Source: a virus. From it: a stretch of 64,000 bases of DNA. Under the pieces are notes generated by a model, which was not told where the DNA came from, ran no database searches, and saw only the letters and a program-made list of their open reading frames with translations. The translations under genes were made by a program, and so were the position numbers. The stretch covers positions 1 to 64,000 of IMG/VR virus record IMGVR_UViG_3300047471_000178, one strand, 5' to 3'. Below are positions 18,568 through 41,973 of this stretch, one piece after another. Position 1 is the first letter of the stretch. Each line of letters opens with the position of its first letter.

Positions 18568-18569
18568 CG

Positions 18570-21194
18570 ATGCGGATCGGCACCAACCTGACTCCACTCG
18601 ATGCTGGCAATGCCACTGAACGCCCATTCCTGAATGAACTCAAGGTAATGGGCGGTTATTTCACCTACACTTCTCCGAATGGCAGCGACACCGGAGAAGA
18701 AGTCGCACTCTACAAGACCGGATTGGACGCTAACGGATACTGCACGTCATTCAGCGGCTTCACGTTCGGCGCTCTACAGATGATGATTAATGGCGGCGCA
18801 TGGTCGTCGAATCCAACCGGAAACTATTATGTTTTCATGTGTGACCTCAACGGTGGCACACCATCATTCAGTTTCACTACGAATAGTGCTGTTACTTCGG
18901 TGGATAGCAGTAATGCCGCTTCAGGACGATGGCTTCTAACCACATCTAACAACGGGAATCCCATCAGAATATGGCAGACCGCGACAGGAACTCCACACGC
19001 CACTAACTTCCGCCTGATTTGGGGCGGCGTTGAGAATGTCGGTGACGTTGCCTCTACTGCTGGCACTGGCGTAGGAACTACCGTCGGCGTCAATGGCGTA
19101 GGAACCAGAGAGGCGCTCTATAACAGCAATGTGGCTGGCGGTCAGCCTTGGGGAGGGTTTAATCCAACCTTCCTAGCCAAGATGGCCCCGTACTCGTCAA
19201 TCCGGTTCATGGATTGGGGCGCAACGATTGCAAGCTGCCAAGTTGATTGGGCAGATCGCCGTCCAGTGGGATGGGTTTCTTATGTTGATGGTTTCAACTT
19301 CCCGACCAAGTTTGGTGTCACACCCAACCCAGATCAGGGCGGAGGAAAGAGCGAAGTCCCCTATGAGGTAATGTGTGCACTCTGCAATCAGTTAGGCGTG
19401 GATATGCACATCTGTATGCCTGGTTTGGCAACGGATGATTTTGTTTTGCAGCTTGCGACGTTCGTACACAGCGATGCGACTTACAAACTTGTTTCGCCTC
19501 ACAACGTTCGCGTCGAATATTCCAACGAAGTTTGGAACCAGGGGCAATTCGGTGTATTTCTTGGTACGATCACGGCAAGCTGTGCTGCTGGTGTCCTCAA
19601 TGTTACTTCCGTAGCCGGACTTACTGGAGGCAAACTATTTGCTGGTATTAACGGATGTTGGTTGGAAGACGGCAGCAATGATGGGCACGGTGATTCTGCG
19701 CTTGCTGGTTCTTATCCAGCAATCATTACTAGCTTGGGAACAGGAACTGGAGGCACCGGGACTTATAACATCAGCCGCAATCTGACGTTTGGTTCAGAAA
19801 CAATCAATGTCCATCTCAACGTCAATGCCTGTATGTCGAATTTGGATTTAGAAGCGAATAATAACGGAGGCTTAGGGGGAGCGAGTAATTTTACGTTTGT
19901 TGTCCAATATGGGGGCCTTCGCGCTGCCCAAGTCGGCAACATTTGGAAGGACGTTTGGGGCGGCGATGCCTCGCGTGTCATAAGATTATTCGGCGGCTGG
20001 TCAGGCAATAACGGGACTATTCAAGGACCTATGCTTCCGCAGACTTGGTTTGATTCAACGGCGCTGTTGGCGGCAACATTTACCGGAACCATATCCGGCA
20101 CAACGCTTACAGTCAGCGGCGTTACCAATACCATCACACCTCATACTCTTGTCACTGGTTCCGGTGTTGCAGCGCAGACATACATCCAATCTGGAAGCGG
20201 AACTACTTGGATTGTCAACAAGTCTCAGTCTGTTGGTCCGGTCAGCATGACATCAATAGGATACAACGGAACGCTGGCTTCCAACGTAGATGAATTGTGT
20301 ACTGCTCCTTATTTCAGCGCCTACGATGCCAGCAATCCGTGGACGGACATGCCTTATGCGTGGCATAATAATCTTTCCGTTGGAGTTGTAAAAGTTGCCA
20401 ACGCTGTTCTTAACGGCGGAGATATTCCCTACGATGGTGGCGGAAGAACCATTCACAGCGCAGATGGTGGTGCAACTTACACGCTGACAAGTAGCTTGGG
20501 TCTATCAGGCACACCCGCTGACATGACGATAGTGAGCGGGACATTTGATACATTGTGTCATGCAGGGGCAACTATCGTCGTTGATTCCTGTTCATCATTT
20601 CCATTGCTGTCGCGCCATGCTGCGATAGGCTTAAATAATGTCGGACCAGGTTATATTATGGCTTTATGCTTCAATGCTATCGATGGAGGTTGGCAGATTG
20701 TAGATAACTATCCCTCCAGCGGTCAATATCGAATTGATGCCGCAGTTCCTGGCGGAAGCGGGGTTACCGGTTGGATTGCAGTTAATTACGCAACTGCTGT
20801 CACCAATGGACTTACATTGTCATGCTATGAAGGCGGACAACAATTCGTTTCATCCGTCCATCAAGGAGGCGACCTTGATACTCTCTGGAAAAACTTCTGG
20901 CGCAGTTCATCAGCCTATACAGTGTTTCTGACTTTCCTGCAAAACATGGATAGCAATGCTACTATAACCATGTTTCATAACTTCAATGACGTTGCCCCGT
21001 TTACGTTTGGTGAATATTGGGGAGCAATGGAATATATAACGCAAACGCCAAACTCGCCACGCTATCAAGCTATTTTGGATTTTACTGGCACATCAGGCCC
21101 AACCACCCCTGGTACTGTCGGTCCTACCACCATCGGAATGAACAGCCGATATGGTGTCTATAAATCTCGCCCGACAAAGATACCACTAAGCTAG
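18570..21194 (+). CDS. large glycoside-hydrolase-like protein (clan GH-A TIM-barrel motifs)
   Basis: 'YSSIRFMDWG...EVPYEVMCALCNQLGVDMHICMP...VRVEYSNEVWN' is a catalytic NE-type motif pattern. Start moved to ATG 18570. Confidence 0.45.
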   Translation: MRIGTNLTPLDAGNATERPFLNELKVMGGYFTYTSPNGSDTGEEVALYKTGLDANGYCTSFSGFTFGALQMMINGGAWSSNPTGNYYVFMCDLNGGTPSFSFTTNSAVTSVDSSNAASGRWLLTTSNNGNPIRIWQTATGTPHATNFRLIWGGVENVGDVASTAGTGVGTTVGVNGVGTREALYNSNVAGGQPWGGFNPTFLAKMAPYSSIRFMDWGATIASCQVDWADRRPVGWVSYVDGFNFPTKFGVTPNPDQGGGKSEVPYEVMCALCNQLGVDMHICMPGLATDDFVLQLATFVHSDATYKLVSPHNVRVEYSNEVWNQGQFGVFLGTITASCAAGVLNVTSVAGLTGGKLFAGINGCWLEDGSNDGHGDSALAGSYPAIITSLGTGTGGTGTYNISRNLTFGSETINVHLNVNACMSNLDLEANNNGGLGGASNFTFVVQYGGLRAAQVGNIWKDVWGGDASRVIRLFGGWSGNNGTIQGPMLPQTWFDSTALLAATFTGTISGTTLTVSGVTNTITPHTLVTGSGVAAQTYIQSGSGTTWIVNKSQSVGPVSMTSIGYNGTLASNVDELCTAPYFSAYDASNPWTDMPYAWHNNLSVGVVKVANAVLNGGDIPYDGGGRTIHSADGGATYTLTSSLGLSGTPADMTIVSGTFDTLCHAGATIVVDSCSSFPLLSRHAAIGLNNVGPGYIMALCFNAIDGGWQIVDNYPSSGQYRIDAAVPGGSGVTGWIAVNYATAVTNGLTLSCYEGGQQFVSSVHQGGDLDTLWKNFWRSSSAYTVFLTFLQNMDSNATITMFHNFNDVAPFTFGEYWGAMEYITQTPNSPRYQAILDFTGTSGPTTPGTVGPTTIGMNSRYGVYKSRPTKIPLS

Positions 21195-22214
21195 ATTCTC
21201 TGGATAGAGTTCTCGTCCGGCAGGCAGACTTTGCACAAGCGCCCCGCCAATAACCTCATTAACTTGGGCAGGGGTATAAGCACCTTCCGGACATGGCCTG
21301 AGCATCTCAAAGTCATCTGGACTTAGGAGATGCCCTCTCTCGCAATCAGACTTGAGTCTTAAGGCCCGTCTCTGGACGATAACAGACTCATCCTCATTAT
21401 TCTCGACTCGCTTGACCCCATCTCCCATAGCCATCTCTAGTTCCCAAGTGGCTTTCACCATTTCTTTCCATGATCGATGGGTAAGTGCAAAAGCATGATC
21501 TGGGCCGCTTCTCGTATTGTCATCCGTAAAGTGCTTCTCGACAACACTCGCACCAAGCGCGACAGCGCCCAAGACGGAAGAATGTCCAGGCGTATGGTCA
21601 GAAAGACCAAGTGTAAGATGAGGCCAGTGAATCGCATACGAACGCAGGACATTAATGTTGACATGCTTGAAGTTCTCCAGTGAGCCTGTGTAGTTGGTGT
21701 TGCATTGCAGGAGAGTTAATTGATGATTGTGTCTGAGCACCGTCTTTACGGCTATCTCCACCTCTTCCATCGTGGAGGCTCCTGTAGCTAAATAAACCGG
21801 CTTCCATTGACAAGCGATGTGCTTGATTAACGGAAGATAGGTAATATCCCCTGACCCGATCTTATATCCACTGACCAAATCAAAGACCTGATCGACAGCC
21901 TCGAAGTCGTATGGTGTAGTCATGAAATGAATGCCCACACTCTTAGCCGTCTCGGCAAGTATGGAGTTCCAATCGCGGTTGATGCTGTATTGCTGATAGA
22001 CTTCATAAACGGGTTTTTCCCACGCGGCCTGATGGGCGCTCTTGCCGATGGACTCGAACCCTTGACGGCTCACGATGGACTCAGCCTTGAAATGCTGAAA
22101 CTTAGCGCAGTCTGCACCGGCTTCCTTTGCTAACTTGATGAGTTCCCTGGCTCGCTCAAGCTCACCATCATGGTTAGCCCCGATGTCTGCGATGAAATAG
22201 GTCACTTGTCCCAC
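21186..22214 (-). CDS. neuB: NeuB-family nonulosonic acid synthase (PseI/LegI/NeuB type) with SAF domain
   Basis: 'YFIADIGANHDGELERARELIKLAKEAGADCAKFQ...KIGSGDITYLPLI...LGLSDHT'. The C-terminal region is SAF-like. Confidence 0.85.
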   Translation of the reverse strand: MGQVTYFIADIGANHDGELERARELIKLAKEAGADCAKFQHFKAESIVSRQGFESIGKSAHQAAWEKPVYEVYQQYSINRDWNSILAETAKSVGIHFMTTPYDFEAVDQVFDLVSGYKIGSGDITYLPLIKHIACQWKPVYLATGASTMEEVEIAVKTVLRHNHQLTLLQCNTNYTGSLENFKHVNINVLRSYAIHWPHLTLGLSDHTPGHSSVLGAVALGASVVEKHFTDDNTRSGPDHAFALTHRSWKEMVKATWELEMAMGDGVKRVENNEDESVIVQRRALRLKSDCERGHLLSPDDFEMLRPCPEGAYTPAQVNEVIGGALVQSLPAGRELYPENLA

Positions 22215-22420: not shown

Positions 22421-22528
22421 GGCTTAAATCCCCTAAAGCACTTGAACATTCCTCAATGCGAGATGCTCAGGTAGCCATCGCCATCGGCGCGAGCCCACGC
22501 CAACTCAGCCAAATCAAGACGGGTATAA

Positions 22529-23632
22529 TCAAATGTCATCTGTTGCCCACTTCACAATCTCCCGCATATGCTTAAGATGCTTTGGCTTGGGATCGTAAGA
22601 ACATACCTCAAAGGTGATAAGTTCTTCATCCTCTAACTTCTCAGCAACTGGGCATGGACTTCCATTAAATATGCGATTGAGCGTCGGTGAGTAGCCCTTG
22701 CGGATTGGAAAGTTACAGGCCCACAACCTGTCAAGAATCTTCTGTCTTTCCCCGTCCAGTACCCTGAAGGCCGCGATATAATAAGAGTGAGTGCAGTCAA
22801 TATCCCTCTCAGGAGTAATAACCCAAGGAGAATAAAACATATCGATCATTTCTTCGGCGAGCGCTATTCTTCCCTTCATAATCACAGGAGCCTTGACTAG
22901 CTGGGCGCAGGCAATCGCAGCCGTAGGTTCTGTGATACGGAGGTTGAGCCCTGTCTGACTAGAGCCTCCCAACTCTCCGTGGTTGATCGCGCCTTGTAGT
23001 CTATGTGCCAGAGTGCTGTCGTTCGTAACAACAACGCCACCTTCACCTGCTTGGATGTGCTTGTGGATGTTGAGAGAGAAGACTCCGATGTGCCCGATGG
23101 TTCCGGCATAATGACCTCCCTCCCTGGCGAAGGGTGATTGAGCGTTGTCCTCAATCATAACAACTTTATTGGAGTCGCACCAAGAGCGAATGCATTGTAG
23201 GTAAGCTGGATGCCCAAATAAGTTCGTCACAATAATAGCCTTCGGGGGGGTAGAGCCGAAGTTGTTCATGTTTATCGAGAAGCGAGTCGTCTCGATGTCG
23301 ATGAACACAATATGTGCTCCTAACACCTTCGCACAGGCAGCCGTAGCAGACATACTGTATGCGGTCGTCCAGACCACCGAATCCGGGCCGATTCCAACGG
23401 CTAAACATGCTGCCAATAGTCCACTGGTTGCACTGTTACATGGTATAGCATGTTTGACCTTGAATGCATCGCACCATTCTGATGCCAACCGCTCGACCCA
23501 ATAACCACCTGTCGGAATGCCTCCGAGATATCCTGATAATGGCTTCCGCATTGCATCAACAATGTTGATTCCTTCTGTTCTTCCGATAGTGAAGAACTTT
23601 GGAAGCTGCTCTAGTGGAGACGGCCCATCCAT
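22529..23632 (-). CDS. pseC: DegT/DnrJ/EryC1-family sugar aminotransferase (PseC-like)
   Basis: Family-typical length and segments, for example 'AIPCNSATSGLLAACLA' and 'VFSLNIHKHIQAGEGGVVVTND' (PLP lysine context). Confidence 0.8.
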   Translation of the reverse strand: MDGPSPLEQLPKFFTIGRTEGINIVDAMRKPLSGYLGGIPTGGYWVERLASEWCDAFKVKHAIPCNSATSGLLAACLAVGIGPDSVVWTTAYSMSATAACAKVLGAHIVFIDIETTRFSINMNNFGSTPPKAIIVTNLFGHPAYLQCIRSWCDSNKVVMIEDNAQSPFAREGGHYAGTIGHIGVFSLNIHKHIQAGEGGVVVTNDSTLAHRLQGAINHGELGGSSQTGLNLRITEPTAAIACAQLVKAPVIMKGRIALAEEMIDMFYSPWVITPERDIDCTHSYYIAAFRVLDGERQKILDRLWACNFPIRKGYSPTLNRIFNGSPCPVAEKLEDEELITFEVCSYDPKPKHLKHMREIVKWATDDI

Positions 23633-23796
23633 TTGGTTACGCTCTTGTCGTATTGTATTATCTGCTTGGTAATCTGCTTGGCTTTGTGGGGATGATTCTG
23701 AAAGGCGAGAACCAATAACTTCATCCAGATTTTGTTGTTTTTGGTTCTGATACTTCTTATGCGGCGAACGATTTTTTCATTTGATAATCTTGGCAT
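23611..23796 (-). CDS. small basic protein (61 aa), uncertain
   Basis: ATG 23796 is preceded by GGGAGA. It fills the 124-nt gap between the pseB-like and pseC-like genes and overlaps both. Confidence 0.3.
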   Translation of the reverse strand: MPRLSNEKIVRRIRSIRTKNNKIWMKLLVLAFQNHPHKAKQITKQIIQYDKSVTKWMGRLH

Positions 23797-24713
23797 ACGA
23801 TCTCCCTTAGTTGCGGAACAGTAAGCCATTCCGAGTTGGTGTCGCTCGTGTAACGGAATCCCTCCCCGACTCTCAGGCCGAAATTTTCCTTGGATAGAGT
23901 AATAAGATAGTAGGGATGGAGGTCAAAGGCATGACGAGATTCATCCTCGGTCATAAGACATTCGTTAATCTTTTCTCCCGGCCTGATGCCGGTCACGATA
24001 TGATCGGTGTCAAATGCCGCTACCAAATCTATGATCTTGAAGGACGGTATCTTGGGGATGAATATCTCCCTTCCTACCATCGTCTTATGGCAGGTCAGAA
24101 CGAGATCGATGGCTTGATCCAGGGTAATATGGAACCGGGTCATCCTAACGTCTGTTACAGGTAATGGCTTGTTCTCTAAGGCAAGTTTCCTAAAGAAAGG
24201 AATAACACTACCACGGCTGCCAGCAACATTACCGTAGCGCACGACACTGAAGGCCGTGGCTCCGGCAGACAGAGCATTCGCTGCCACAAATACCTTTTCT
24301 GCCGCCAGTTTAGTTGCACCGTAAAGATTGATTGGATTGACAGCCTTATCAGTAGATAGGGCGATAACTCTCTTAACTCCTGATCTAATTGCTGCTTTTG
24401 CGACATTTTCGGCTCCTGTGACGTTGGTAGCCACCGCCTCTGTTGGATTGTATTCCAAGATTGGTACGATTTTTAGGGCTGCCGCATGAATGACTGTCTC
24501 AATGCCGTGCATGGCAAGCTCAAGTCTTCCCTGATCTCTAACATCACCAATGAAGTACCGCATACAGCTTTGCGGAAACTCCCGCGCCATAACGTCTTGT
24601 TTCTGTTCATCGCGGCTGTAGATCACCACGCGATCAGGGTTTGTTTTCAGGATTCTGCGGACGAAGGCATGACCGAATGAGCCGGTTCCCCCGGTGATTA
24701 AGACATTCTTCAC
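23757..24713 (-). CDS. pseB: UDP-GlcNAc 4,6-dehydratase (PseB/FlaA1-type short CapD-like)
   Basis: 'VLITGGTGSFGHAFVRRIL...VIYSRDEQKQ...YGATKLAAE'. GTG start overlaps the upstream stop (GTGA). Confidence 0.85.
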   Translation of the reverse strand: MKNVLITGGTGSFGHAFVRRILKTNPDRVVIYSRDEQKQDVMAREFPQSCMRYFIGDVRDQGRLELAMHGIETVIHAAALKIVPILEYNPTEAVATNVTGAENVAKAAIRSGVKRVIALSTDKAVNPINLYGATKLAAEKVFVAANALSAGATAFSVVRYGNVAGSRGSVIPFFRKLALENKPLPVTDVRMTRFHITLDQAIDLVLTCHKTMVGREIFIPKIPSFKIIDLVAAFDTDHIVTGIRPGEKINECLMTEDESRHAFDLHPYYLITLSKENFGLRVGEGFRYTSDTNSEWLTVPQLREIVCQDYQMKKSFAA

Positions 24714-26737
24714 GCTGTAGCCCTCAATGGTGTAGCTTCCACAACACTATCGCCAACAACACGAGAAATATCACCGCGCTGAAGGCAATCAGAAATGACA
24801 CGGAAGGTGTTATCATACGCGGTACATATCCTCTTGAACTCTGGTTCCTTATGAGCAAATGACAGGGCATTCGACGCAATGATAAGGACACCCTGTTGAG
24901 CCATCTCCATCATGAATAGTGACCTGATGTGATTGTTGAGGAAGGTGAGATGCTGGTTGGGATACCAGCCGTCAATCAGGATGTAGTCGCTTATTCCGGT
25001 ATGCTTCAATGAAGCTAGGATGTGACGCTCCAACCTAGCCCCCATCTTGCAAAGGTAGTCGCACACATTCTCTCGCTCGATCTTCTTGATGGTTGCGATG
25101 GCTGCTGCAATGGAAAGAGTCTCACCAAAGAAGGTGCCGGAGTAGAACACATCCGGTGAGTTCATCTTCTCCATGATGTTACGCTTACCGACTAGGGCTG
25201 ATATGGGCATTCCGTTCGCCATAGCTTTACCGAAGCAGGCGAGATCTGGTGTTACACCGTACAGAGCCTGTGCTCCGCCCATGTCATGGCGGAATCCGGT
25301 GATGATTTCGTCAAAGATCAGGACGATGCCGTGCTTGTCGCATGTTACACGCAGCCAATCCAAATATTCAGGATCATCAATGGGCTCTACGATGATAGCG
25401 GCGACTTCATCCATAACGTACGGGTGCATAAAATTATAAGGGAGAGAATTTATCTTTTTAGATGAAATTCTAGTTGTTAAAGTTCTTACATCTTCTGGGA
25501 TTCCAGCCCTTCTGTCAGTAGAAGAAATAGACCAGTCAGACCAACCGTGGTAGCCTCCAAGTAGAATATGTTCTCTGCCCGTGTAGGCCCTAGCTAACCT
25601 GACAGCCGCTGTTGTTACATCTGTTCCGGACTTGCCCAGTTTGACCATTTCTGCGCAGGGGATGTGCTTGCAGAGAAGCTCTGAGAGTTCGGACTCAAGC
25701 TCGGTGGCAAGGGAGAAGCTGATGCCGTTGTCGAGTTGCCTGCGAATAGATTCGTTAACGTCTGGATCGTTGTAGCCAAGAATGACAGGATACAGAGCGC
25801 CAACAAGATCGACGTAACGGCTCCCATCCACATCAAAGATATAACCACCATCACCATAGTTAGCGTATAGTGGGGAGCGACCTTCTGGGAACTGTATGTG
25901 ACTCTTGCTGAAGGTCTGGGCTCCAGTCGGAATGGTTTTGATGGCCCTGTTGAATACTCTGGCAGACTCTGTAAATGTTCGTGGGGATAGTCGCTCTTCT
26001 GATAGCGCTTCGTAAAACCTCTCATTGCGTATTCCTCCAGCATTTAGTTCTCTGATATTTGGATAATTGTCTAGGAAGTTACGGATATAGACGTAAGATG
26101 CTCCGGTGTGGGCGCATTTGGTAGCTACTGCTTTGCAGAACTCCCAATCTTTCTCGGTATCCAAAACCCACCGTTCCCTGTCCAATCCCGGCAGCGGGCA
26201 GGTCAGGTTGACCACCTTGAAACGTGATCTATTGCGAACAATGAATTGCGTAAGGCAGTCCCTATCGACCGGGCTAGTTGCTTCCTTCCATGCCGACTCC
26301 AGAGCGGCGAAGGTAAAGCACTCAGTATCAAGACCATCAGGATAAGTAGGGGGGTAGCAATTAGACGCATATGATGCATCCATCATCTCCCTTAGTTTGA
26401 TGACTTCATTGATGATACCTGGGTCAATGAATGGGCAATCACAGGTGAACCTGAGGACAATATCGGCCTGATATTGCTTTGCACACCAGTAATATCTGTC
26501 AAGAACATCCGTCTCACTGCCTCTGAAACATTCGATCTTATTCTCGTTACAGTATTGTTGTATGACATCATCTCTGTGATCTGTTGACGTTGCGATGACC
26601 ACTTCATCGATGAAGGCTGAACACCTGATGTTATCGTAGGCCCAGCGCAGGACAGGCTTGTTGCTAAGCTGGCGCATGACCTTCCCAGGTACGCGGGTAG
26701 AACCCATTCTTGCTTGGCAAATAGCTACTATTTTCAT
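24710..26737 (-). CDS. fusion protein: SpsF/CMP-sugar cytidylyltransferase-like N-domain plus class-III (GSA-type) aminotransferase C-domain
   Basis: N-domain: 'KIVAICQARMGSTRVPGKVMRQLSNKPVL'. C-domain: 'FDEIITGFRHDMGGAQALYGVTPDLACFGKAMANG'. Start ATG 26737 overlaps the upstream stop (ATGA). Confidence 0.75.
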   Translation of the reverse strand: MKIVAICQARMGSTRVPGKVMRQLSNKPVLRWAYDNIRCSAFIDEVVIATSTDHRDDVIQQYCNENKIECFRGSETDVLDRYYWCAKQYQADIVLRFTCDCPFIDPGIINEVIKLREMMDASYASNCYPPTYPDGLDTECFTFAALESAWKEATSPVDRDCLTQFIVRNRSRFKVVNLTCPLPGLDRERWVLDTEKDWEFCKAVATKCAHTGASYVYIRNFLDNYPNIRELNAGGIRNERFYEALSEERLSPRTFTESARVFNRAIKTIPTGAQTFSKSHIQFPEGRSPLYANYGDGGYIFDVDGSRYVDLVGALYPVILGYNDPDVNESIRRQLDNGISFSLATELESELSELLCKHIPCAEMVKLGKSGTDVTTAAVRLARAYTGREHILLGGYHGWSDWSISSTDRRAGIPEDVRTLTTRISSKKINSLPYNFMHPYVMDEVAAIIVEPIDDPEYLDWLRVTCDKHGIVLIFDEIITGFRHDMGGAQALYGVTPDLACFGKAMANGMPISALVGKRNIMEKMNSPDVFYSGTFFGETLSIAAAIATIKKIERENVCDYLCKMGARLERHILASLKHTGISDYILIDGWYPNQHLTFLNNHIRSLFMMEMAQQGVLIIASNALSFAHKEPEFKRICTAYDNTFRVISDCLQRGDISRVVGDSVVEATPLRATA

Positions 26738-27648
26738 AGTCCTGCCTGCTTTCTTACTTCGATGCATACCTTAAGAACCTCAAGACCTTCTTCTCCAGTG
26801 CAGCCGATAGTGTCCTTGCCATCGCATCGTGCAAGAAACGATTCCATTTCTTCCACATAATTTTCTTCCCAACTATCCTGCCCCTCGAATTGATCCATAA
26901 TCACCTCATCGGCTCTGCGTAACCATGCAAGACGATGCACCAGATCAGCAATGATGGTAGCCCCGGTTCCGACAATCAGGAACTGTCTTATTTCCGGTTG
27001 CGTGACATAATCGAGGTGAATCGACGTGCGACAACCATTCTCGTGGGTAAGGAGGATGTCTGAGATGTCATCCTTTCCATCGCTAAGGCGAGTAGCAGAA
27101 CCAGACACGTTCCCACTGCCAAGAAGATAAATGGCAAGATCAATTTCGTGACTCCAGTTGAGGACGACACCATCCCTGAGATACGGTGGCTTCTCGCTAT
27201 GCTGAGCGAGAGTGAAGTTAGACCAGAGAGTTTTGCCGATCATTCCGGCATCTAACCATTCCTTGGCCTTACGAACACAACTATGCCATCTGAGATTATA
27301 GCCTACCATCCATTTGTTATTTTTGTAGTCATGGTCTTTTAAGTGAGCTTTAATGTAGTCATAGGCAATCTGTGAATCAGCAATTGGTTTCTCTATAAAG
27401 ATGTTCTTCCCTGAGAATACAAGTGCTTTTAGGTGGTCAAAGTGCATCCGTGTCGGACTAGCAATAATAATTGGATCAGACATCTTAATGAGAAATTCCA
27501 AGTCGTCACAGGTCCATCCAGACTTCTTGGACTTGTCTGGGTCATAACCAATGACTTCGGTTTGACCGAGTTTCTGCCATAGGTTGGTAGCGTGGCGCTT
27601 ACCAATTGATCCAAGTCCTATCACGCCAATGGTTCTGACCTTAGTCAT
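26734..27648 (-). CDS. Gfo/Idh/MocA-family oxidoreductase
   Basis: 'VRTIGVIGLGSIGKRHATNL' is a Rossmann-type start. Start placed at 'MTKVRTIG' (alternative 27663). Confidence 0.75.
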   Translation of the reverse strand: MTKVRTIGVIGLGSIGKRHATNLWQKLGQTEVIGYDPDKSKKSGWTCDDLEFLIKMSDPIIIASPTRMHFDHLKALVFSGKNIFIEKPIADSQIAYDYIKAHLKDHDYKNNKWMVGYNLRWHSCVRKAKEWLDAGMIGKTLWSNFTLAQHSEKPPYLRDGVVLNWSHEIDLAIYLLGSGNVSGSATRLSDGKDDISDILLTHENGCRTSIHLDYVTQPEIRQFLIVGTGATIIADLVHRLAWLRRADEVIMDQFEGQDSWEENYVEEMESFLARCDGKDTIGCTGEEGLEVLKVCIEVRKQAGL

Positions 27649-30942: not shown

Positions 30943-33432
30943 ATGGCCCGCCGCACAGGCAGTCTGCCACTCAACGATCCATATCCAAAGGCAACGTCCC
31001 CAGCGTTGTCTCTCGTTACAAACAATGAACAGGAAGAACAGGACGAGGATAGCTCAATCAAGATTGAGCATCCTGACGGTTCTGTAACCATCGATTTCAG
31101 CGATCACGATGATGAGGACGACGGACCGGAAGATACCGATTTCAATAAGAATCTATCCAAGTCGATGGATGATGGGGAGTTGGAAAGTATTGCGTCATCT
31201 CTCCTCGAAGGCATTCAGCAGGACGATCAATCGCGCAAGGAATGGCTGGATACCCGCGCTATGGGTATCTCTCTCCTTGGGCTAAAGCTGGAGAAACCCA
31301 GGTCAGATGCAGGATCATCTTCTGCCCCGCTTGAGGGCATGTCTGTTGTCAGACACCCGCTACTTTTGGAAGCCACGGTTTCCTTCCAGGCTACTGCAAG
31401 GGCAGAACTCCTCCCAGCAGCGGGTCCAGTTAAGGTCCGCAATGACTCGACTGTACCGCCGAAAGCCGTATCCCAGGATACCTCCGCTGCCCACGATCTA
31501 GCCGACAGCATGGAGAATAAGGACGATCTTTCTCAGGCTTTAGAGAAAGACATGAATCACTACCTGACAACCATTGCGACAGAGTATGTCCCGGATACGG
31601 ATAGGATGCTGTTCTACGTCGGCTTCGGCGGGGATGGATTCAAGAAAGTTTATAACTGCCCCCTAAGACGCAGGCCGGTATCCGAGAGCATTGATGCCGA
31701 GGACATCATTGTTTCCAATGCAGCCACCGACATCAGGAACTCCAGCAGGGTTACGCATAAGATCAAGATGCGTAAATCAACCTTGCGCCGGATGCAGATC
31801 ATCGGTGCCTATCGTGATGTTGAACTTTCCAATCCTACTCCATCACCGGCTACTGCTGTCGATAAGAAGAAGGAAGAATTAGCCGGGGTAAAGGAAGATC
31901 ATAAGCGTCCTGAAGATCAGGATTACACGATCTACGAATGCTACTGCGAACTTGACATCAAGGAATACGCCCCAAAGAAGTTCAAGGGCAAAGGATTGCC
32001 GCTCCCGTATCGTGTGACAATCGAGGAAACCAGCAAGAAGATTCTCGACATCCGCAGGAACTGGAAGGAAGACGATGAAGAATGCCTTGCCAAACATTTT
32101 ATTGTTCAATTTCCCTTTATCAGAGGGTTGGGCTTCTACGGACTCGGTTTTATTCATTTGCTCGGTAATCTTACCGCCGCACTTACGGCTGCTACCCGCC
32201 TGCAACTTGACGCGGGCATGTTCGCCAATTTCCCTGGCTTTCTGTTCTCCAAGGGAGCCGGAAGGCAGAACACCAACACATTCCGCATAGCCCCCGGCAC
32301 AGGTCAGGGTCTCGATGTCGGCGCTCAGGGGAGAATCCAAGACGCCGTTATGCCGCTTCCCTACAAAGAGGTTGGAGCTTCATTTGCCGCATTTACCAAG
32401 GGATTGGAAGAAACAGGCCGCCGCCTTGCCTCCACAGCAAGCGCAAACGTCGGAGAAGGAAAGCAAGACGCCCCCGTGGGTACTACCCTCGCCCTTATCG
32501 AACAAGCCTCCAAGGTTATGGATTCGGCCCATAAACGCCTCCATGCAGCGCAAGCCGAAGAATTCAAACTTCTCAAAGAACGGTTTAGGGAAGACCCGGA
32601 AGCATTCTGGCGTCATAACAAGAAACCAACCATTCAATGGAAGAAACAGCAGTTCATAGATGCGCTGAACGTCTGCGAGCTTGTCCCGGTAGCCGATCCG
32701 AATAACCCGACCTCCCTGCACCGCATTGCCAAAGCTATGGCTATCAAGACGCTGCAACAGGCCAGTCCGGACCTGTACGACCCGACCGCTGTCGATATGC
32801 GGATCATGCGGATTGTGGATATTGATCCTGAAGGCTTGTTCCGTCCGACGCCTGCTGCGCCTCCACCCGATCCGAGAATGGAAGCCATTCAGGCCAAGTC
32901 ACAGGCTGAACAGGCCAAGACCCAGATCATGCAGATGCAGACGCAGATCAAGGCGGCTGAAGCCCAGGCAAACTTTGCCGATAAGGCCCAGGAGCGTCAG
33001 TCGAGAGAGAAGATCGAAGCTATGAAGATTCAGCTTCAGCAGCTTAAGCTCAAGCAGGAAGCCATCATCCACGCCCACGATCTCCACCAAGACGCCACCA
33101 TGAACCAGCACCAGATGCAGTTGGATGCCGCTTCCAAGGCGCAGGAACTCCATCACGAGAACCTGTCCCGCATGAACGAGATGCATGGAGATCAGGTTGC
33201 ACAGCAGCATGAATTGCGTGGTGGGCTTATCAAGGCTGCTCATGAGATGCAGCATGATCGCGTCAAGTCATCCCAGGAAATAGCGCGGGATCACGAAAAA
33301 CATCAGGCTGAAATGCAGCGCGACCGTGAGCGGCATGAGATGGACATGCAGCACGCCAAAGAGATGCATCAGCAGAAGCTTGAATCAGCTAGACAACTTG
33401 CTAAGGTGAAACCGAAAGCAAAGAAGGATTAG
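30943..33432 (+). CDS. portal protein with long His/Gln/Met-rich coiled C-terminal extension
   Basis: Called from its position directly after terL and its size (829 aa). Family not recognised at the motif level. Confidence 0.65.
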   Translation: MARRTGSLPLNDPYPKATSPALSLVTNNEQEEQDEDSSIKIEHPDGSVTIDFSDHDDEDDGPEDTDFNKNLSKSMDDGELESIASSLLEGIQQDDQSRKEWLDTRAMGISLLGLKLEKPRSDAGSSSAPLEGMSVVRHPLLLEATVSFQATARAELLPAAGPVKVRNDSTVPPKAVSQDTSAAHDLADSMENKDDLSQALEKDMNHYLTTIATEYVPDTDRMLFYVGFGGDGFKKVYNCPLRRRPVSESIDAEDIIVSNAATDIRNSSRVTHKIKMRKSTLRRMQIIGAYRDVELSNPTPSPATAVDKKKEELAGVKEDHKRPEDQDYTIYECYCELDIKEYAPKKFKGKGLPLPYRVTIEETSKKILDIRRNWKEDDEECLAKHFIVQFPFIRGLGFYGLGFIHLLGNLTAALTAATRLQLDAGMFANFPGFLFSKGAGRQNTNTFRIAPGTGQGLDVGAQGRIQDAVMPLPYKEVGASFAAFTKGLEETGRRLASTASANVGEGKQDAPVGTTLALIEQASKVMDSAHKRLHAAQAEEFKLLKERFREDPEAFWRHNKKPTIQWKKQQFIDALNVCELVPVADPNNPTSLHRIAKAMAIKTLQQASPDLYDPTAVDMRIMRIVDIDPEGLFRPTPAAPPPDPRMEAIQAKSQAEQAKTQIMQMQTQIKAAEAQANFADKAQERQSREKIEAMKIQLQQLKLKQEAIIHAHDLHQDATMNQHQMQLDAASKAQELHHENLSRMNEMHGDQVAQQHELRGGLIKAAHEMQHDRVKSSQEIARDHEKHQAEMQRDRERHEMDMQHAKEMHQQKLESARQLAKVKPKAKKD

Positions 33433-34236: not shown

Positions 34237-34439
34237 TGACTACCAGATTCCACGCCTTGCTTGAGAAGAAGATAACGGAAGCCATCAAGGACAGGTCCGA
34301 TTCCCTTGTTGTCGGGCAGGCCGATGACTATCCGAAGTATAAGGAAGGCGTAGGTTATATTTATGGTTTACGCACAGCACTCGCACTTTGCGAGGATGTA
34401 GAACAGGATTTAGGAAATGAGCGTAGTAACTCCATTTAA
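34236..34439 (+). CDS. hypothetical protein
   Basis: 67-aa ORF with an ATGA-type junction. Confidence 0.45.
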   Translation: MTTRFHALLEKKITEAIKDRSDSLVVGQADDYPKYKEGVGYIYGLRTALALCEDVEQDLGNERSNSI

Positions 34440-34830
34440 GGCTATTGAGGCTATAACGACGGCCTCTGACCCGAAGAAGGCCATTCTTGACTTTGTTGGC
34501 GATCTATCCGGGTTTGAGGTGATGGGTGACCGGGTTCTTGTCGGAATCTTTATGAGACCGGAAAAGACCAGGGGTGGTATTATCCGCCCTGACATCAATA
34601 AGGAAGAGGATGTTTGGCAGGGTAAGGTAGGTCTGGTCCTTAAATTAGGTCCTAATGCTTTTGTTGATCCCGATGATGGCTCACTCTATGCACAGCGAGT
34701 TAGAGTTGGTGATTGGATAGTGTTCAAAGTTGGGGACGGATGGCAGTTGCAAGTCAATAAGATGCCTTGCCGGATGATTAAGGACACCAACTTCATTGCC
34801 ATGATTGAAGACCCGATGATGGTCTTGTAG
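34417..34830 (+). CDS. GroES/Cpn10-like co-chaperonin
   Basis: 'GDRVLVGIFMRPEKTRGGIIRP...GKVGLVLKLGP...VRVGDWIVFK' follows the GroES pattern. Confidence 0.6.
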   Translation: MSVVTPFKAIEAITTASDPKKAILDFVGDLSGFEVMGDRVLVGIFMRPEKTRGGIIRPDINKEEDVWQGKVGLVLKLGPNAFVDPDDGSLYAQRVRVGDWIVFKVGDGWQLQVNKMPCRMIKDTNFIAMIEDPMMVL

Positions 34831-37204: not shown

Positions 37205-38119
37205 ATGCCTGTCGCATTAGCTCAAATAAAGGACTTGTTGCTTCCAGGCTTGTGGGGCATCTCCGGCAAGTATCCCATGATCGAGCGTCAGTGGCCTAAA
37301 ATCTTTAGGCAGACTGATTCCTCCATGTCTCTCGAACGTCGCGCTGCGATGCGCTTCCTCGGCCTTGCTCAGTTGAAGCAGGAAGGTGCGCCGACCAGCT
37401 TCGACAACGCGGCAGGTCAGCGGTTCGTCTATAACGCCGAGCACTTTGAAATCGGCCTCGGCTATGCGATCACCCGCAAGGCCATCGACGACAACCTCTA
37501 CAAATCAGAGTTTGGGCCGTCCAACGACGGTTTGATGGAGTCCTTCAAGGAGACCGAAGAGATTTATGCCGCTAACGTCTTTAATTCCGGATCGACCTAC
37601 AACGCCTCGATTGGCGGCGACGGCGTAGCCCTCTTCAGCACATCCCATCCGACCGATGCCGGTACTATCGGCAATGCGCCGAGCCCGGATGTCGATCTGA
37701 ACGAGACTTCGCTTCTTAATGCCCTCATCGCCATTCGTTCGACCTGGAAAGACAATGCTGGCCTGAAGATTCACGCTAGAGGCCGCAAGGTCATTGTCCC
37801 GGCGAACCTTGAGCCAATTGCTCTCAGGCTCTTCCGTTCCGAGCTTCGTCCAGGCACCGCGACTAACGATGTCAATGCCATCTTGGGTATGAACGATTCC
37901 CTCAAGGAGGGGTTCATGGTCTGGGATTACCTGACATCATCCTTCGCTTGGTTTGTCTGCACCAATCACGATGGACTGATATTCTTCAACCGCAAGCCGT
38001 TCGAGATGGATATGACGGTAGAGTTCACCACTGACAACCTTCTAGTTAAGGGCTATCAGCGGTATGTTCCGTCGTACTACGATTGGCGAGCGGTATGGGG
38101 AACCTTCCCGCTGTCATAA
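37205..38119 (+). CDS. major capsid protein
   Basis: 304 aa, lying after the scaffold-like gene. 'ALFSTSHPTDAGT...' is typical of HK97-fold coat families. Confidence 0.65.
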   Translation: MPVALAQIKDLLLPGLWGISGKYPMIERQWPKIFRQTDSSMSLERRAAMRFLGLAQLKQEGAPTSFDNAAGQRFVYNAEHFEIGLGYAITRKAIDDNLYKSEFGPSNDGLMESFKETEEIYAANVFNSGSTYNASIGGDGVALFSTSHPTDAGTIGNAPSPDVDLNETSLLNALIAIRSTWKDNAGLKIHARGRKVIVPANLEPIALRLFRSELRPGTATNDVNAILGMNDSLKEGFMVWDYLTSSFAWFVCTNHDGLIFFNRKPFEMDMTVEFTTDNLLVKGYQRYVPSYYDWRAVWGTFPLS

Positions 38120-38281: not shown

Positions 38282-38620
38282 ATGGGCACCCAGACTGTAA
38301 CTTTGTCATCGGTTGGCACGGCGACGATGTATCTCAATCCCGTTGCCAAATCCACGACCGTACAGTTGACCGTATCATCCTCGGCTGTCGCCACCGTTCA
38401 GATCGACATGACCCTGGATGATCCGAGCACGACTCCGGCACCGACGATTGCATGGTCGCTATTGAGTTCAGCGGCGGCGATTGTTTCTTCCAACAGTCTG
38501 CCTGGTGTTGGGCTGGTTTACACGATCCTCTCGCCCATTGGCGGGGTCAGGATCAATTCTTCGACCAATGCCGCACCAGCTACTTTCACGCTCAAGGCAC
38601 TTCAATCGGTTACGGCTTAA
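38282..38620 (+). CDS. small Ser/Thr/Ala-rich structural protein
   Basis: 112 aa, 'TVTLSSVGTATMYLNPVAKSTTVQLTVSSSAVATVQ'. Confidence 0.5.
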   Translation: MGTQTVTLSSVGTATMYLNPVAKSTTVQLTVSSSAVATVQIDMTLDDPSTTPAPTIAWSLLSSAAAIVSSNSLPGVGLVYTILSPIGGVRINSSTNAAPATFTLKALQSVTA

Positions 38621-39079: not shown

Positions 39080-39748
39080 ATGGGTTGGCCAACCACCACT
39101 TACACTAAAATCCTGGCAGCCGCCTCTTCTACAAGCATTGGATCGATTTCGACTGCGGCAGGTGGAACCGTTACGTTATCATGCGCTCTGTTGGACACCG
39201 CCCGCCGCATTAGCGTTGCATCGGCCTCCTTGTCAGGCCCAAGCTATGTAATTACGGGCCTTGACCAAAATGGCCACGTCATCACTGAGTCAATTATTCC
39301 TTCTACAACGGTTGTCAGTGCCGCCACGACGACGCAGGACTTCATCAAGGTAACGTCGGTCAGCTTGTCATGTTCGGTTACCAATTCATCTGGAGGGTTC
39401 TTAATTGGTACGACGACCCAAGGTGGAACACCGTGGGTTCCCATCGACACGACTCGTAATCCAATCAATGTGGTATTTGGGATTGATATTACGTCGCCAT
39501 CTACGGTAGTGGTGGCAAGCTTTGAATACACGCAGGACTATCCAAACTTCAACCCAGCGTCCAATCTTTGGGTAGGGACTCCGACCAATACAGGTCCGCG
39601 TCCGACAATTTCCTCATTTGGGTCAAGTGTGACACTAGATACGGCTGGAACGATCACAACTCCATTTGTTGCATGGAGAATGACGATGACCAGTAGTTCA
39701 TCGGGGGCTGGTACGGCTGCCTGCTCAGTGATGCAGAGTGGTGTCTAA
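39080..39748 (+). CDS. Ser/Thr-rich structural protein
   Basis: 222-aa ORF. Confidence 0.5.
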   Translation: MGWPTTTYTKILAAASSTSIGSISTAAGGTVTLSCALLDTARRISVASASLSGPSYVITGLDQNGHVITESIIPSTTVVSAATTTQDFIKVTSVSLSCSVTNSSGGFLIGTTTQGGTPWVPIDTTRNPINVVFGIDITSPSTVVVASFEYTQDYPNFNPASNLWVGTPTNTGPRPTISSFGSSVTLDTAGTITTPFVAWRMTMTSSSSGAGTAACSVMQSGV

Positions 39749-40132
39749 ATGTCCGTGAATTATAGTTCAATTGCCATCAATTTCCGTATGCAGGGTGTTG
39801 TCTCGGCTATTGATGACTCCGGGAACGGCGTTTTACGTCTTCTGGCGGGGGGAACGATTCTATCCAGCATAACCCTGCAAAACCCATGTGGTACTGTAAG
39901 TGGGACCGTATTGACCTTTACGGGCAATTTGATTGACGCATCGGCATCTAATACAGGTTTAGCTACGGCAGCTAGAATTGATGATGCATCTGGCATTACA
40001 ATGATCTCTGGATTAACGGTGGGGATACCCGGCTCTGGGGCTGACATTCTCCTAACGAATGGTCTAAATAACACCCTTGTAACCGCAGGACAGACCGTAG
40101 CGGTCGTGTCGGCTCAAATTACAGGGACATAA
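39749..40132 (+). CDS. small structural protein
   Basis: 127-aa ORF that abuts the upstream stop. Confidence 0.5.
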   Translation: MSVNYSSIAINFRMQGVVSAIDDSGNGVLRLLAGGTILSSITLQNPCGTVSGTVLTFTGNLIDASASNTGLATAARIDDASGITMISGLTVGIPGSGADILLTNGLNNTLVTAGQTVAVVSAQITGT

Positions 40133-40133: not shown

Positions 40134-41114
40134 ATGGCTAAGATTACCGAAACAACCAAAGACAAAATGGCCAATGGCGGCCACCCAATGCATCAGCCTT
40201 TTCTTGTGGCTCAACCTGTTTATGCCCAGCAGCAGTTTCCGATCCCTGTTATTGCTCCCCCGAAGAAGAGGGGGCGCAAACCTAAGGTAGCCCCACAAGA
40301 ACAAATAGTGAACTTGGCTCCCATGGTAGAGCCACAGCCCCTGAAGATCGCTCTTATCGGCACGGCTCCTTCATCCCGGATGCTGGCTCCTTTCAACGAT
40401 CCTTCATGGAAGATTTGGGCCTGTTCTCCCGGCAACCAGAATGTCTTCCCCAGGGTAGATGCTTGGTTTGAGCTTCACGGGACGAATCTGTTGTGGCCCG
40501 CAAATGAGCACTATGGCAGGCCATACATCGAATGGCTCAAACAACAGAAATTCCCGATTTACATGCAGGACCAAAGGCTTGTGCCTAACGCCATCACCTA
40601 TCCCAAGGATGAGATGCTGAAGGAATTTGGGCCATATTTCTTCACCTCATCCTTTGCCTGGATGATGGCATTGGCCATGAAAATGGGAGCCAAGGAAGTT
40701 GCTCTCTTTGGAATCGATATGGCTTCCAAGGACGAGTACATTCTCCAAAGGAGTGGTGGGCACTACTTCATCGTTGAAGGCGCAAGGCGTGGTTGCAAGG
40801 TTTGGGCACCGTTTGAGTCCGATATCATGCAACCCCCAAGCTTGTATGGGTATTCCGATGTTGGCCCTCTTTTGCGGAAGGTTCTGGCAAGAGAAGAAGA
40901 GATTAAGGGCCGGATTGCCCCAATGAAACAACAGATAGAGAGCATGACGAAAAATGTCACTTATCTTGAAGGTGCACTAGAGGACCTTGATTACATGAAG
41001 ACAATCCATGGTGGCGCACAAGATAACTGTGATATAAGCTTTCTTGAAAGGTTGCTTAAGACTTCCGAAGAAACTGCTCCTGGGCGCAGTACAACAGCCC
41101 TGAGCCAAGGATAG
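40134..41114 (+). CDS. sialyltransferase-fold protein (GT42 / Maf-DUF115-like), putative nonulosonate transferase
   Basis: 'KIALIGTAPSS...WKIWACSPGN' and 'FFTSSFAWMMALAMKMGAKEVALFGIDMAS...GGHYF' resemble CstII 'VIIAGNGPSL...VFRCN' and 'ITSGVYMCAVAIALGYKEIYLSGIDF...SHYIGH' (recalled from memory). Confidence 0.5.
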   Translation: MAKITETTKDKMANGGHPMHQPFLVAQPVYAQQQFPIPVIAPPKKRGRKPKVAPQEQIVNLAPMVEPQPLKIALIGTAPSSRMLAPFNDPSWKIWACSPGNQNVFPRVDAWFELHGTNLLWPANEHYGRPYIEWLKQQKFPIYMQDQRLVPNAITYPKDEMLKEFGPYFFTSSFAWMMALAMKMGAKEVALFGIDMASKDEYILQRSGGHYFIVEGARRGCKVWAPFESDIMQPPSLYGYSDVGPLLRKVLAREEEIKGRIAPMKQQIESMTKNVTYLEGALEDLDYMKTIHGGAQDNCDISFLERLLKTSEETAPGRSTTALSQG

Positions 41115-41125: not shown

Positions 41126-41665
41126 ATGGCAAACTTCGCACTTGTTAATTCTACCAACTTTGCCGCCCAGGCAACGATGGGAACAAGTTATCTGTCGGTC
41201 ATTGTTTGCGGCGCATCGTCGCTGGCTTTCAACAATCCGGCGACTGTTTCCGGTGTTCGTCGTGGTAAAATCTACGACATCCTGATTGGCACGAACACCA
41301 CCCCGGCTGACAATGCCATTGAATGGGCTGTTGCCCGTGCGACGATTGGCACAACGGCAATTTACCTCGGAACGGTATCGAGCGTGTCCAGTCTTGCTAC
41401 CATTGATCCCGGCGATGTTGTCTTCAGCAGCTTCCTGGGAGTCAATTCCAGCGCTGGTTCAACCGCTGTGATCTCACAAACAGCTCAACTCTGGTATGTA
41501 GGCATCAACCAACGCGCTTCGTATCGTTGGGTTGCGGCTCCTGGGTCCGAGTTTGTTTGGCCAGCAACAACCTCTGCTGCCGGTAACAACGGTATGCAGT
41601 TGATGGCTAGGTCACCGGCCTATGTGAGCACGGTCACTGCAACCGTTCTCGGTACAGAGGTCTAG
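41126..41665 (+). CDS. Ser/Thr/Ala-rich structural protein
   Basis: 179-aa ORF. Confidence 0.5.
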   Translation: MANFALVNSTNFAAQATMGTSYLSVIVCGASSLAFNNPATVSGVRRGKIYDILIGTNTTPADNAIEWAVARATIGTTAIYLGTVSSVSSLATIDPGDVVFSSFLGVNSSAGSTAVISQTAQLWYVGINQRASYRWVAAPGSEFVWPATTSAAGNNGMQLMARSPAYVSTVTATVLGTEV

Positions 41666-41667: not shown

Positions 41668-41973
41668 GTGGCTATCCAGCGAAGTTATGCCATGATCTCC
41701 TCACCGGAGCCGTCGAAAGTCAATTTCGACGGTTTGCGGTGTGAGAGAATAGAGGCCGGGGTTTTTGAGGTTGATACGGTGATGTGCGGTCATTGTGGCC
41801 GCCACATCCATATCAAGCCGAGAATGGACCCAGCCGATATGGGCGGCCTATGCAAGCAGTGCATGAAGTTCGAGTGTCCAAGTTGCGTTGGGAAGGGCTG
41901 TACTCCGTTGGAAAAGAAGATTGAGCGAGTGGAGGAAAAAAACAGGATCATAAGTCAATACGGCTCTTGGTAA
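41668..41973 (+). CDS. zinc-ribbon protein
   Basis: 'CGHCGRH...CKQCMKFECPSCVGKGC'. GTG start. Confidence 0.45.
   Translation: MAIQRSYAMISSPEPSKVNFDGLRCERIEAGVFEVDTVMCGHCGRHIHIKPRMDPADMGGLCKQCMKFECPSCVGKGCTPLEKKIERVEEKNRIISQYGSW

Follow-up and report, generated by a model that had tools for sequence, protein, structure and literature searches.

A putative nonulosonate transferase with a GT42/DUF115-type fold encoded in the virion module of an uncultured tailed phage

The window analysed here is a 64,000-nucleotide (nt) stretch of viral DNA (positions 1 to 64,000 of IMG/VR record IMGVR_UViG_3300047471_000178), and the gene in question is an open reading frame (ORF) at 40134..41114 on the plus strand, encoding a protein of 326 amino acids (aa) from an ATG start. 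The best explanation for the data is that this product is a divergent, previously unannotated nonulosonate transferase of the GT42/DUF115 fold, which probably O-glycosylates virion proteins; the probability of this full statement was put at roughly 0.58. Its parts differ in strength. The product is very probably an enzyme of GT42/DUF115 fold, and it is likely to handle a nonulosonate activated with cytidine monophosphate (CMP). The link to a donor pathway encoded in the same genome is well supported, and a virion protein as the acceptor has close to an even chance.

The gene and its product

The peptides quoted in a preliminary description of the gene (KIALIGTAPSSRMLAPFNDPSWKIWACSPGN, VDAWFELHG, FFTSSFAWMMALAMKMGAKEVALFGIDMASKDEY and SGGHYF) were all found in the product of 40134..41114. 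The stop codon of the upstream ORF (orf127, 39749-40132) ends one base ahead of the ATG, and an AGGGA Shine-Dalgarno sequence lies about 8 nt 5' of it. Because of this arrangement, the transferase gene is probably translationally coupled to orf127. The layout of the product is given below, with the predicted local distance difference test (pLDDT) and predicted template modelling (pTM) scores of the structure models.

40134..41114, plus strand: putative CMP-nonulosonate transferase of GT42/DUF115 fold, 326 aa (ORF, homologues, fold matches, gene order conserved at ~65 related loci)
40134..40316, plus strand: disordered N-terminal tail, aa 1-61 (pLDDT 46-62, clade-specific)
40317..40868, plus strand: predicted catalytic core, aa 62-245, a single Rossmann-like alpha/beta domain (AlphaFold2, pLDDT 95.2, pTM 0.89)
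40470..40478, plus strand: E113-L-H115 of the WFE(L/M)H motif, candidate catalytic acid/base (invariant in three family alignments)
40641..40751, plus strand: FTSS...G193-I-D195...E201-Y202...Q205-R206, putative GT42-like nucleotide-sugar segment (hhalign, sub-threshold PF01973 match, weak PDB matches)
40866..41009, plus strand: long C-terminal helix, aa 245-292, coiled-coil-like (DSSP on the model, weak coiled-coil family matches)

A Pro/Lys-rich tail had been claimed for the protein, and the N-terminal ~60 residues are indeed rich in these residues and predicted to be disordered. Short motifs (PKLTPT.ND, HEP and EQ.VN) are conserved in the tail across the close-homologue alignment. Most members of the protein family are 225-300 aa long, start at the core and have no tail, so the tail is specific to the window's clade. 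It also carries a basic, AT-hook-like patch, KRGRKPK, and the homologues P0056, P0044 and P0016 have the canonical RGRP; docking and DNA contact are possibilities for this region. The Ser+Thr fraction of the transferase itself is 0.09.

Predicted fold and sequence relationships

The GT42/DUF115 class comprises single-Rossmann, metal-independent proteins, and its characterised glycosyltransferase members use CMP-activated nine-carbon sugars. In the AlphaFold2 model of the full-length protein, the core was predicted with confidence, the N-terminus was disordered and the C-terminal part formed a long helix; a second model was made of aa 62-245 with a 91-sequence alignment. The sialyltransferase fold that had been proposed for the product was recovered with both models, as GT42 enzymes exclusively occupied the top of the PDB matches in Foldseek. 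For the full-length model the top 13 matches were all GT42 (CstII, Cst-I and the Pasteurella multocida sialyltransferase), and for the core model the top 15 were all GT42, with E-values from 7.8e-7 to 8.6e-5 and query-normalised template modelling (TM) scores of 0.54-0.60. Structural similarity to this fold, the absence of which had been named in advance as a reason to abandon the assignment, was therefore present. In a library of predicted viral structures, the nearest named neighbours were a giant-virus DUF115 protein and an 'MptE-like' Caudovirales protein (E 4e-4 to 9e-4).

Thiamin pyrophosphokinases (TPKs), which belong to the wider MptE-like/TPK fold class, ranked next for the core model (E ~1e-3, TM 0.50, ~1,000-fold weaker than GT42), and SteA and YcfA were also among the fold matches. 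The product might thus be a nucleotide binder of MptE/TPK fold with another chemistry, such as pyrophosphoryl transfer, and its nonulosonate linkage coincidental or indirect. The sole Pfam hint, the MptE-like model, also covers a pterin kinase, and the catalytic residues of CstII are not conserved in the transferase. This reading was nevertheless judged highly improbable: GT42 took all of the top 15 ranks with E-values about 1,000-fold better than those of TPK, the signal at sequence level was to GT42 only, and family members adjoin NeuB or CMP-synthetase genes in several lineages, phage and cellular, that are unrelated to each other, which is hard to call coincidence.

Single-protein searches of PHROGs, NCBIfam and PDB sequences gave nothing significant for the transferase, and neither did searches of PDB with one profile built from 40 close homologues and another from 82 diverse ones. 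Eight of the ten weak PDB matches of the 82-member profile were GT42 sialyltransferases, all of them at the TSS..GID segment. For a profile-profile comparison, the CstII sequence was verified against PDB chains and a GT42 alignment of 47 sequences was built. With hhalign, the family profile and the GT42 profile aligned locally over a single stretch of 32 columns (P=1.3e-4, probability 54%), in which T171-S172-S173 paired with T131-S132-G133 of CstII, G193-I-D195 with G152-I-D154, and Y202 with Y162. The resemblance to CstII noted in the preliminary description is therefore above chance, by Foldseek (E=7.8e-7), by the hhalign match and by the weak PDB matches. One of the three motif alignments proposed there had to be given up: SGGHYF does not correspond to SHYIGH of CstII, because H210 is variable in the family and is not the equivalent of CstII His188. 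It is the fold comparison and the profile-profile alignment that relate the product to GT42; since direct assignment to a sequence family failed, sequence methods alone were insufficient.

Eight residues are invariant across the family (G76, W95, E113, H115, G193, E201, R206 and Y238). G76 belongs to an N-terminal Gly-rich loop whose other residues vary. The conservation pattern suggests that E113 and H115 are likely to supply the acid/base, and the WFE(L/M)H and QR motifs are kept even in the cellular paralogues described below.

The family is large. A 90%-clustered database yielded 1,231 homologues, all of them devoid of Pfam domains, and at 50% identity 4,068 clusters matched with E<=1e-3, including 2,760 with E<=1e-10. 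A repeat homologue search seeded with the remote alignment again returned mostly the window's clade. Protein XAN61349.1 of Microcystis phage Mvi-Yong1342-1 (L001:7902-8705), the one phage homologue that carries an annotation, is a family member by hidden Markov model (HMM; E=7.7e-56). Its GenBank label, 'type 11 methyltransferase' (class I, S-adenosylmethionine-dependent), was rejected, as no methyltransferase model of NCBIfam or Pfam matched it.

Donor operon and its association with the transferase gene

A near-complete CMP-nonulosonate operon had been described in the same genome, and this was confirmed. It occupies 21186-28728 on the minus strand, 11.4-18.9 kb upstream of the transferase gene, and comprises the following genes.

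21186..22214, minus strand: NeuB-family nonulosonate synthase, PseI/NeuB-like (PF03102 E=1.1e-67; NeuB and PseI models below cutoffs)
22529..23632, minus strand: PseC/LegC-like DegT aminotransferase (PF01041 E=9.9e-45; best NCBIfam model PseC, below cutoff)
23757..24713, minus strand: PseB, inverting UDP-GlcNAc 4,6-dehydratase (TIGR03589 422.6 bits, cutoff 407.75; Polysacc_synt_2 E=5.6e-95)
24710..26767, minus strand: CMP-sugar cytidylyltransferase (PseF/NeuA-like) fused to a class-III aminotransferase (CTP_transf_3 and Aminotran_3)
26734-27663, minus strand: GFO/IDH/MocA oxidoreductase (domain search)
27641-28252, minus strand: methyltransferase, tailoring (domain search)
28234-28728, minus strand: GNAT N-acetyltransferase, PseH-like (domain search)

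PseB catalyses the first committed step of the pseudaminic acid pathway, and its match was above the NCBI equivalog cutoff. The matches of the DegT, GNAT, NeuB and CTP_transf_3 genes were at family level, all below equivalog cutoffs. Against PDB, the N-terminal part of the fusion protein, which is unusual, resembled cytidylyltransferase 6oew and the remainder glutamate-1-semialdehyde (GSA) aminomutases. Judged by these matches, the pathway appears to be a pseudaminic-type one that includes additional tailoring enzymes, and because the fusion adjoins the oxidoreductase and the methyltransferase genes, a tailored, non-canonical pseudaminic-type sugar is suggested as the product. Two Ser/Thr-rich ORFs lie at the NeuB end of the operon on the plus strand (17704-18567, 287 aa, 23% Ser+Thr; 18552-21194, 880 aa, 19%). 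Neither Pfam nor PHROG gave a match for them, homologues were undetectable in related phages, and they may encode either variable receptor-binding or fibre proteins or additional acceptors.

The co-occurrence of operon and transferase gene was counted in related phages with a portal-profile anchor, merging loci by contig and keeping contigs in which both slots were visible. An anchor on the 557-aa ORF in the terminase position had mostly given unrelated phages and was replaced. Both the operon and the transferase gene were present in 14 contigs (window included), neither in 5 more distant contigs, the transferase gene alone in 1 (L268, which has a different upstream layout), and the operon alone in 0. 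Pattern scans of viral contigs for PseB and NeuB under-reported, missing for instance the operon of L136, and their negatives were not used.

Outside the clade, the association was seen as direct adjacency. Three loci of a lineage unrelated to the window (L100, L101 and L107, 93-99% identical to one another) encode, in order, a major capsid protein (MCP) of lambda-E type, a 574-aa Ser/Thr repeat protein, PseB, a PseC-like aminotransferase and two tandem family members. L105 has a NeuB-like gene followed by PseB, an aldo-keto reductase, a family member and a cytidylyltransferase, and the family member of L081 has genes for NeuB (E=9e-60) and a GNAT protein within 8 kb upstream. Among loci anchored on PseB (3 kb flank), a family member was found in 4/50 (E 1e-35 to 5e-55), and among control loci anchored on the terminase-position ORF in 0/80.

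A scan of reference genomes with the distant-member profile gave 18 contigs from metagenome-assembled genomes (MAGs); an earlier scan of reference-genome contigs with clade patterns had given no match. A NeuB-family gene was found within a few kb of the family member in 8 of the 18. In L311, a 678-kb Limnochordia contig with cellular context, two tandem family members are divergent from a NeuB gene and from a gene for a fusion of a NeuA-type CMP-sialate synthetase with a KdsC-like HAD phosphatase (matches to solved structures at E=9e-28 and 2e-33), and an ATP-grasp gene and prolyl-tRNA synthetase come after the family members. A core of CMP-synthetase and tandem transferase genes was present in seven contigs of Bacillota, Clostridia and Limnochordia, with NeuB visible in six. 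The cassette in Limnochordia and Clostridia suggests that unrecognised protein or glycan pseudaminylation systems exist in bacteria too. In cellular genomes or MAGs, the family mostly occurs as tandem duplicates (L311:9965-11297; L302, L305, L306, L309, L312 and L313). Both L311 paralogues end in poly-Arg (RRRRRRRKRR), and one is without the GxD Asp and the conserved Glu.

The proposal that donor pathway and transferase form one system is thus supported by the co-occurrence within the clade and by the adjacency in other phages and in cellular genomes. A role of the product within sugar biosynthesis, for example as a nucleotide-sugar hydrolase at the PseG step or at another nucleotide-handling step, would also fit some of these observations. 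A PseG-like gene was not recognised in the operon by Pfam and NCBIfam domain searches, family members lie inside or abut NeuB/PseB/CMP-synthetase clusters, and a glycosyltransferase-like fold that transfers to water is a hydrolase. Known PseG enzymes have a GT-B fold and a UDP-sugar substrate, whereas the characterised glycosyltransferases with the fold of the transferase bind CMP-sugars. In addition, the clade gene lies 11-19 kb from the operon within the virion module, a family member occurs in a complete phage genome without any pathway genes, and tandem duplication is more typical of transferases with differing acceptors or linkages. A biosynthetic role was considered very unlikely on these grounds.

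Virion module and candidate acceptors

The transferase gene lies among the following genes of the window.

30943-33432: SU10-type portal (domain search)
37205..38119, plus strand: MCP (phrog_371 E=1.3e-8; Mu-like_gpT; 72-89% identity across the clade)
38282..38620, plus strand: orf112, small virion-module ORF, candidate acceptor (Ser+Thr 0.31)
39080..39748, plus strand: orf222, virion-module ORF, candidate acceptor (Ser+Thr 0.33)
39749..40132, plus strand: orf127, small virion structural protein, candidate acceptor (phrog_3758 E=1.5e-9; Ser+Thr 0.24)
41126..41665, plus strand: orf179, conserved downstream neighbour, candidate acceptor (Ser+Thr 0.23)
41668..41973, plus strand: orf101, 101 aa, Cys-rich with several CxxC pairs, Zn-ribbon-like (after orf179 in nearly all clade loci)

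Across 80 related viral loci the gene order was rigid: portal, scaffold-like ORF, orf186, orf218, MCP and then the transferase region, in which at least one of orf112, orf77 and orf222 is followed by orf127, the transferase gene, orf179 and orf101. The transferase is 53-71% identical across the clade loci, and orf127 is directly 5' of it in nearly all of them. Because of this rigid synteny, the transferase gene is a core virion-module gene of an uncultured phage clade with genomes of ~70-77 kb. SU10-type adaptors are encoded further downstream in a close relative. The transferase was found in none of the nearest cultured relatives, all of them remote (HTVC023P-type pelagiphages, roseophages, Caulobacter phages and cyanophages; 36-38% MCP identity). 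A Cpn10/GroES-like co-chaperonin gene (34417-34830, plus strand; PF00166 E=1.3e-9) is flanked by the portal gene and the scaffold-like ORF, and the head module thus appears to include a phage-encoded GroES.

The neighbours of the gene had been described as Ser/Thr-rich, and this was the case, with 22-33% Ser+Thr in the flanking virion ORFs compared to a mean of 0.144 (standard deviation 0.067) for the ORFs of the window. In sister phages without the transferase gene and operon, orf112, orf222, orf127, orf179 and orf101 were also undetected, which divergence of small proteins could explain. In distant lineages, a homologous ORF of 130-160 aa with 27-31% Ser+Thr and a Ser/Thr C-terminal tail lies immediately 5' of the family member. 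At least nine lineages carry this partner (L071, L073, L075, L076, L078, L079, L080, L081 and L295/L296; also L299 and L300). The partner family has an N-terminal LHGRxLG and a central YTLxPP motif, and had no PHROG match. Its HMM also matched the Ser/Thr-repeat protein of L100 (E ~1e-9, to be read with caution given the low complexity). That protein (L100:1247-2971) consists nearly entirely of Ser/Thr-rich tandem repeats of ~40 aa, is encoded between MCP and PseB, and is an obvious candidate fibre or decoration protein of the virion that would be heavily O-glycosylated.

The acceptor is the weakest point of the interpretation, and a virion protein in this role was given about one chance in two, or slightly less. 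It is favoured by the fixed place of the gene in the head module, the probable coupling to orf127, the Ser/Thr-rich neighbours, the Ser/Thr-rich partner ORFs of distant lineages and the match of the partner HMM to the L100 repeat protein.

Alternatively, a nonulosonate transferase encoded here could act on the host surface, such as lipopolysaccharide or lipooligosaccharide (LOS), capsule, flagellin or pilin, and for example block superinfection or change receptor display. Its closest structural relatives, CstII, Cst-I and the Pasteurella sialyltransferase, sialylate LOS, and members in Limnochordia and Clostridia have no phage context, so that their acceptors must be cellular. Prophage-encoded modification of capsular nonulosonates, pseudaminic acid among them, is documented (PMC12053666, PMC6586298). 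In the clade, however, the gene is a core syntenic head-module gene, probably coupled to a virion structural protein, and not a moron or accessory gene. Distant members are paired with the small Ser/Thr-rich ORFs, and the L100 cluster follows the Ser/Thr-repeat protein beside the MCP. Moreover, CstII has a C-terminal membrane-association segment, and no such segment was predicted in the transferase. Action on the host surface was therefore regarded as unlikely.

The genomic position in other phages raises a further reading. Several distant lineages place the gene immediately 5' of the large terminase, the usual slot of the small terminase, and no small terminase was identified beside the terminase-position ORF of the window. 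Together with the AT-hook-like patch of the tail and the long C-terminal helix, this might point to phage DNA modification or to a DNA-associated packaging factor with a small-terminase-like role. Family members are, however, duplicated, embedded in sugar operons and found in cellular genomes where phage genes are absent; the motifs of invariant polar residues resemble those of an enzyme; and no base-hypermodification genes were recognised in the window, though many of its ORFs are unannotated. This was held to be the least probable of the readings considered. Identity with a small terminase as such was rejected, given the Rossmann-like fold and the separate Sf6-type small terminase of the Microcystis phage (E=2.2e-37).

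Evidence against the interpretation and proposed mechanism

Several results weigh against a nonulosonate transferase that modifies the virion. TM scores of 0.54-0.60 came with a root-mean-square deviation of 5-9 Å, which indicates the same fold and a distant relative. Of the earlier label 'GT42 / Maf-DUF115-like', the GT42 part stood by the top PDB matches and the DUF115 part by the viral DUF115/MptE-like models, but no Maf structure (the solved one presumably being PDB 5MU5) was among the top 50 PDB Foldseek matches of either model. A check against curated GT42 and DUF115 models, which had been recommended, came out negative. Pfam hmmscan at E<=10 gave no match of the transferase to PF06002 (CST-I), which also matched 0/40 close and 0/82 diverse members. 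The lone Pfam signal was to PF01973 (MptE-like, formerly DUF115) over 24 residues (aa 177-200; E=0.11), and its score of 12.8 bits did not reach the gathering cutoff of 34.6. The best value among the 40 close members was E=0.037, and among the 82 diverse members the window protein alone matched (E=0.077). Several GT42 proteins match both PF06002 and PF01973, and because the two families overlap in this way, the faint PF01973 signal is coherent with a GT42 fold. At the sequence level, the transferase represents a separate family that shares the fold and lies outside both Pfam families.

At the putative active site, His188, Tyr156 and the lid region of CstII had no demonstrable equivalents in the transferase: position 197 is Ala, and the helix 199-218 directly follows the GID strand with no lid-length insertion. 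D195 is replaced in the operon-embedded members L100a and L105. On the side of the donor, there is the gap at the PseG step, and the co-occurrence in related phages (Fisher's exact p=3.9e-4) overstates independence, as a single ancestral gain suffices to explain it and the counts are thus not phylogenetically independent. The complete 41-kb genome of Microcystis phage Mvi-Yong1342-1 encodes a family member (29% identity) and no Pse homologue, and in L075 no nonulosonate genes lie within +/-10 kb of the family member; phages without the pathway genes would have to use host-made donors. On the side of the acceptor, the partner family was not related to orf127 by hhalign (P=0.54) and its HMM matched no window ORF, so that the pairing of enzyme and substrate holds in the window's clade by analogy only.

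If the transferase does modify the virion, the phage operon would make a tailored CMP-pseudaminic-acid-type donor late in infection, by the action of PseB, the PseC-like, GNAT and NeuB-like enzymes, the cytidylyltransferase fusion, the oxidoreductase and the methyltransferase. The transferase, co-expressed with the head genes, would attach the sugar to hydroxyl groups of Ser/Thr in at least one of orf127, orf179, orf112 and orf222. As with Maf and flagellin, transfer would be cytoplasmic and would precede or accompany assembly. The TSS/GxD/EY..QR segment, putatively nucleotide-binding, would aid departure of CMP, and E113-x-H115 would be the likely acid/base.

Comparison with known systems

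With the GT42 enzymes (CstII, Cst-I and the P. multocida sialyltransferase) the transferase shares the single Rossmann-like alpha/beta fold and a genomic linkage to NeuB and CMP-synthetase, as at cst loci. An N-terminal Gly-rich beta1 loop (GTAPSS, compared to GNGPS in GT42) and the T-S-(S/G)...G-x-D...Y segment may also be common to both. It is only 13-17% identical to them, and its core is ~180 aa long compared to ~260 in GT42. The CstII lid with Tyr156 and His188 are without recognisable counterpart, whereas the transferase family has the WFE(L/M)H and EY..QR motifs. The C-terminal coiled-coil-like helix, the clade-specific disordered tail and the location in a phage virion module are further differences. 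A pseudaminic-type donor instead of N-acetylneuraminic acid (Neu5Ac), and an acceptor that is probably protein Ser/Thr and not LOS, would be expected.

Maf/DUF115 flagellin pseudaminyl/legionaminyl transferases follow the functional logic that is proposed here: they are cytoplasmic, are encoded with a nonulosonate pathway, and modify Ser/Thr-rich surface structural proteins before assembly. The family described here is linked, in the same way, to nonulosonate biosynthesis genes and to Ser/Thr-rich structural ORFs. Maf proteins are much larger and multidomain, and the acceptors here would be phage virion proteins.

Virion glycosylation by phage enzymes has a precedent in mycobacteriophages, whose glycosyltransferases are described as glycosylating the phages' own capsid and tail-tube proteins (PMC11256854, PMC12363180). 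In common with the window phage is a phage-encoded transferase near structural genes, with the phage's own virion proteins as the target (putative here). The mycobacteriophage transferases have unrelated folds and use ordinary hexose donors from the host, while the window phage also carries a pathway for a nine-carbon acidic sugar and a GT42-like enzyme. In Caulobacter, FlmG is described as an enzyme for protein O-pseudaminylation of flagellin, linked to NeuB/Pse genes and with Ser/Thr-rich substrates, but of unrelated architecture, and it is cellular and not viral (PMC7591256).

Full-text literature searches gave no account of nonulosonates being transferred to phage virions, nor of the transferase family, in agreement with the earlier statement that such a system has not been characterised for a tailed phage. 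The transferase is thus a distinct family within a known fold class, in a new biological context. A broader claim is tentative, and was given somewhat less than an even chance: the transferase would be the founding example of a nonulosonate protein O-glycosyltransferase family of more than 4,000 clusters from phages and certain bacteria, with a phage CMP-sugar pathway coating the virions of a widespread clade of environmental podophages of ~70-77 kb, the first in tailed phages, with a conserved pair of genes for Ser/Thr protein and transferase and with a WFExH / EY..QR site unlike that of CstII.

If this is true, many environmental phages spend ~8 kb of their genome on an acidic nine-carbon sugar for their own particles. 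Such a sugar could alter the charge and stability of the virion and its adhesion to mucus or biofilm, and could also alter recognition by lectins of hosts or predators and by immune systems, and sensitivity to glycan-targeting defences. Sialic-like molecular mimicry would extend from bacterial pathogens to the viruses of bacteria, and a family of thousands of so far unannotated proteins would gain a function. With ~180 aa and another catalytic motif, the CMP-nonulosonate transferase would also be a compact scaffold of interest for pseudaminic or legionaminic glycoengineering.

Other features

PHROG and Pfam annotation of the large window ORFs that were without assignment gained almost nothing. 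In L081, the ORF in the terminase position (L081:10766-13480, 904 aa) contains LAGLIDADG/Hom_end domains at aa 293-365 and is probably an intein-containing large terminase. The early region of the window encodes a 414-aa M28-peptidase-like protein (6938-8182, minus strand). Further along, a 972-aa protein (60080-62998, plus strand) contains a Phage_lysozyme2 domain (E=1.8e-15), and is probably a lysin that is either ejected or associated with the tail.

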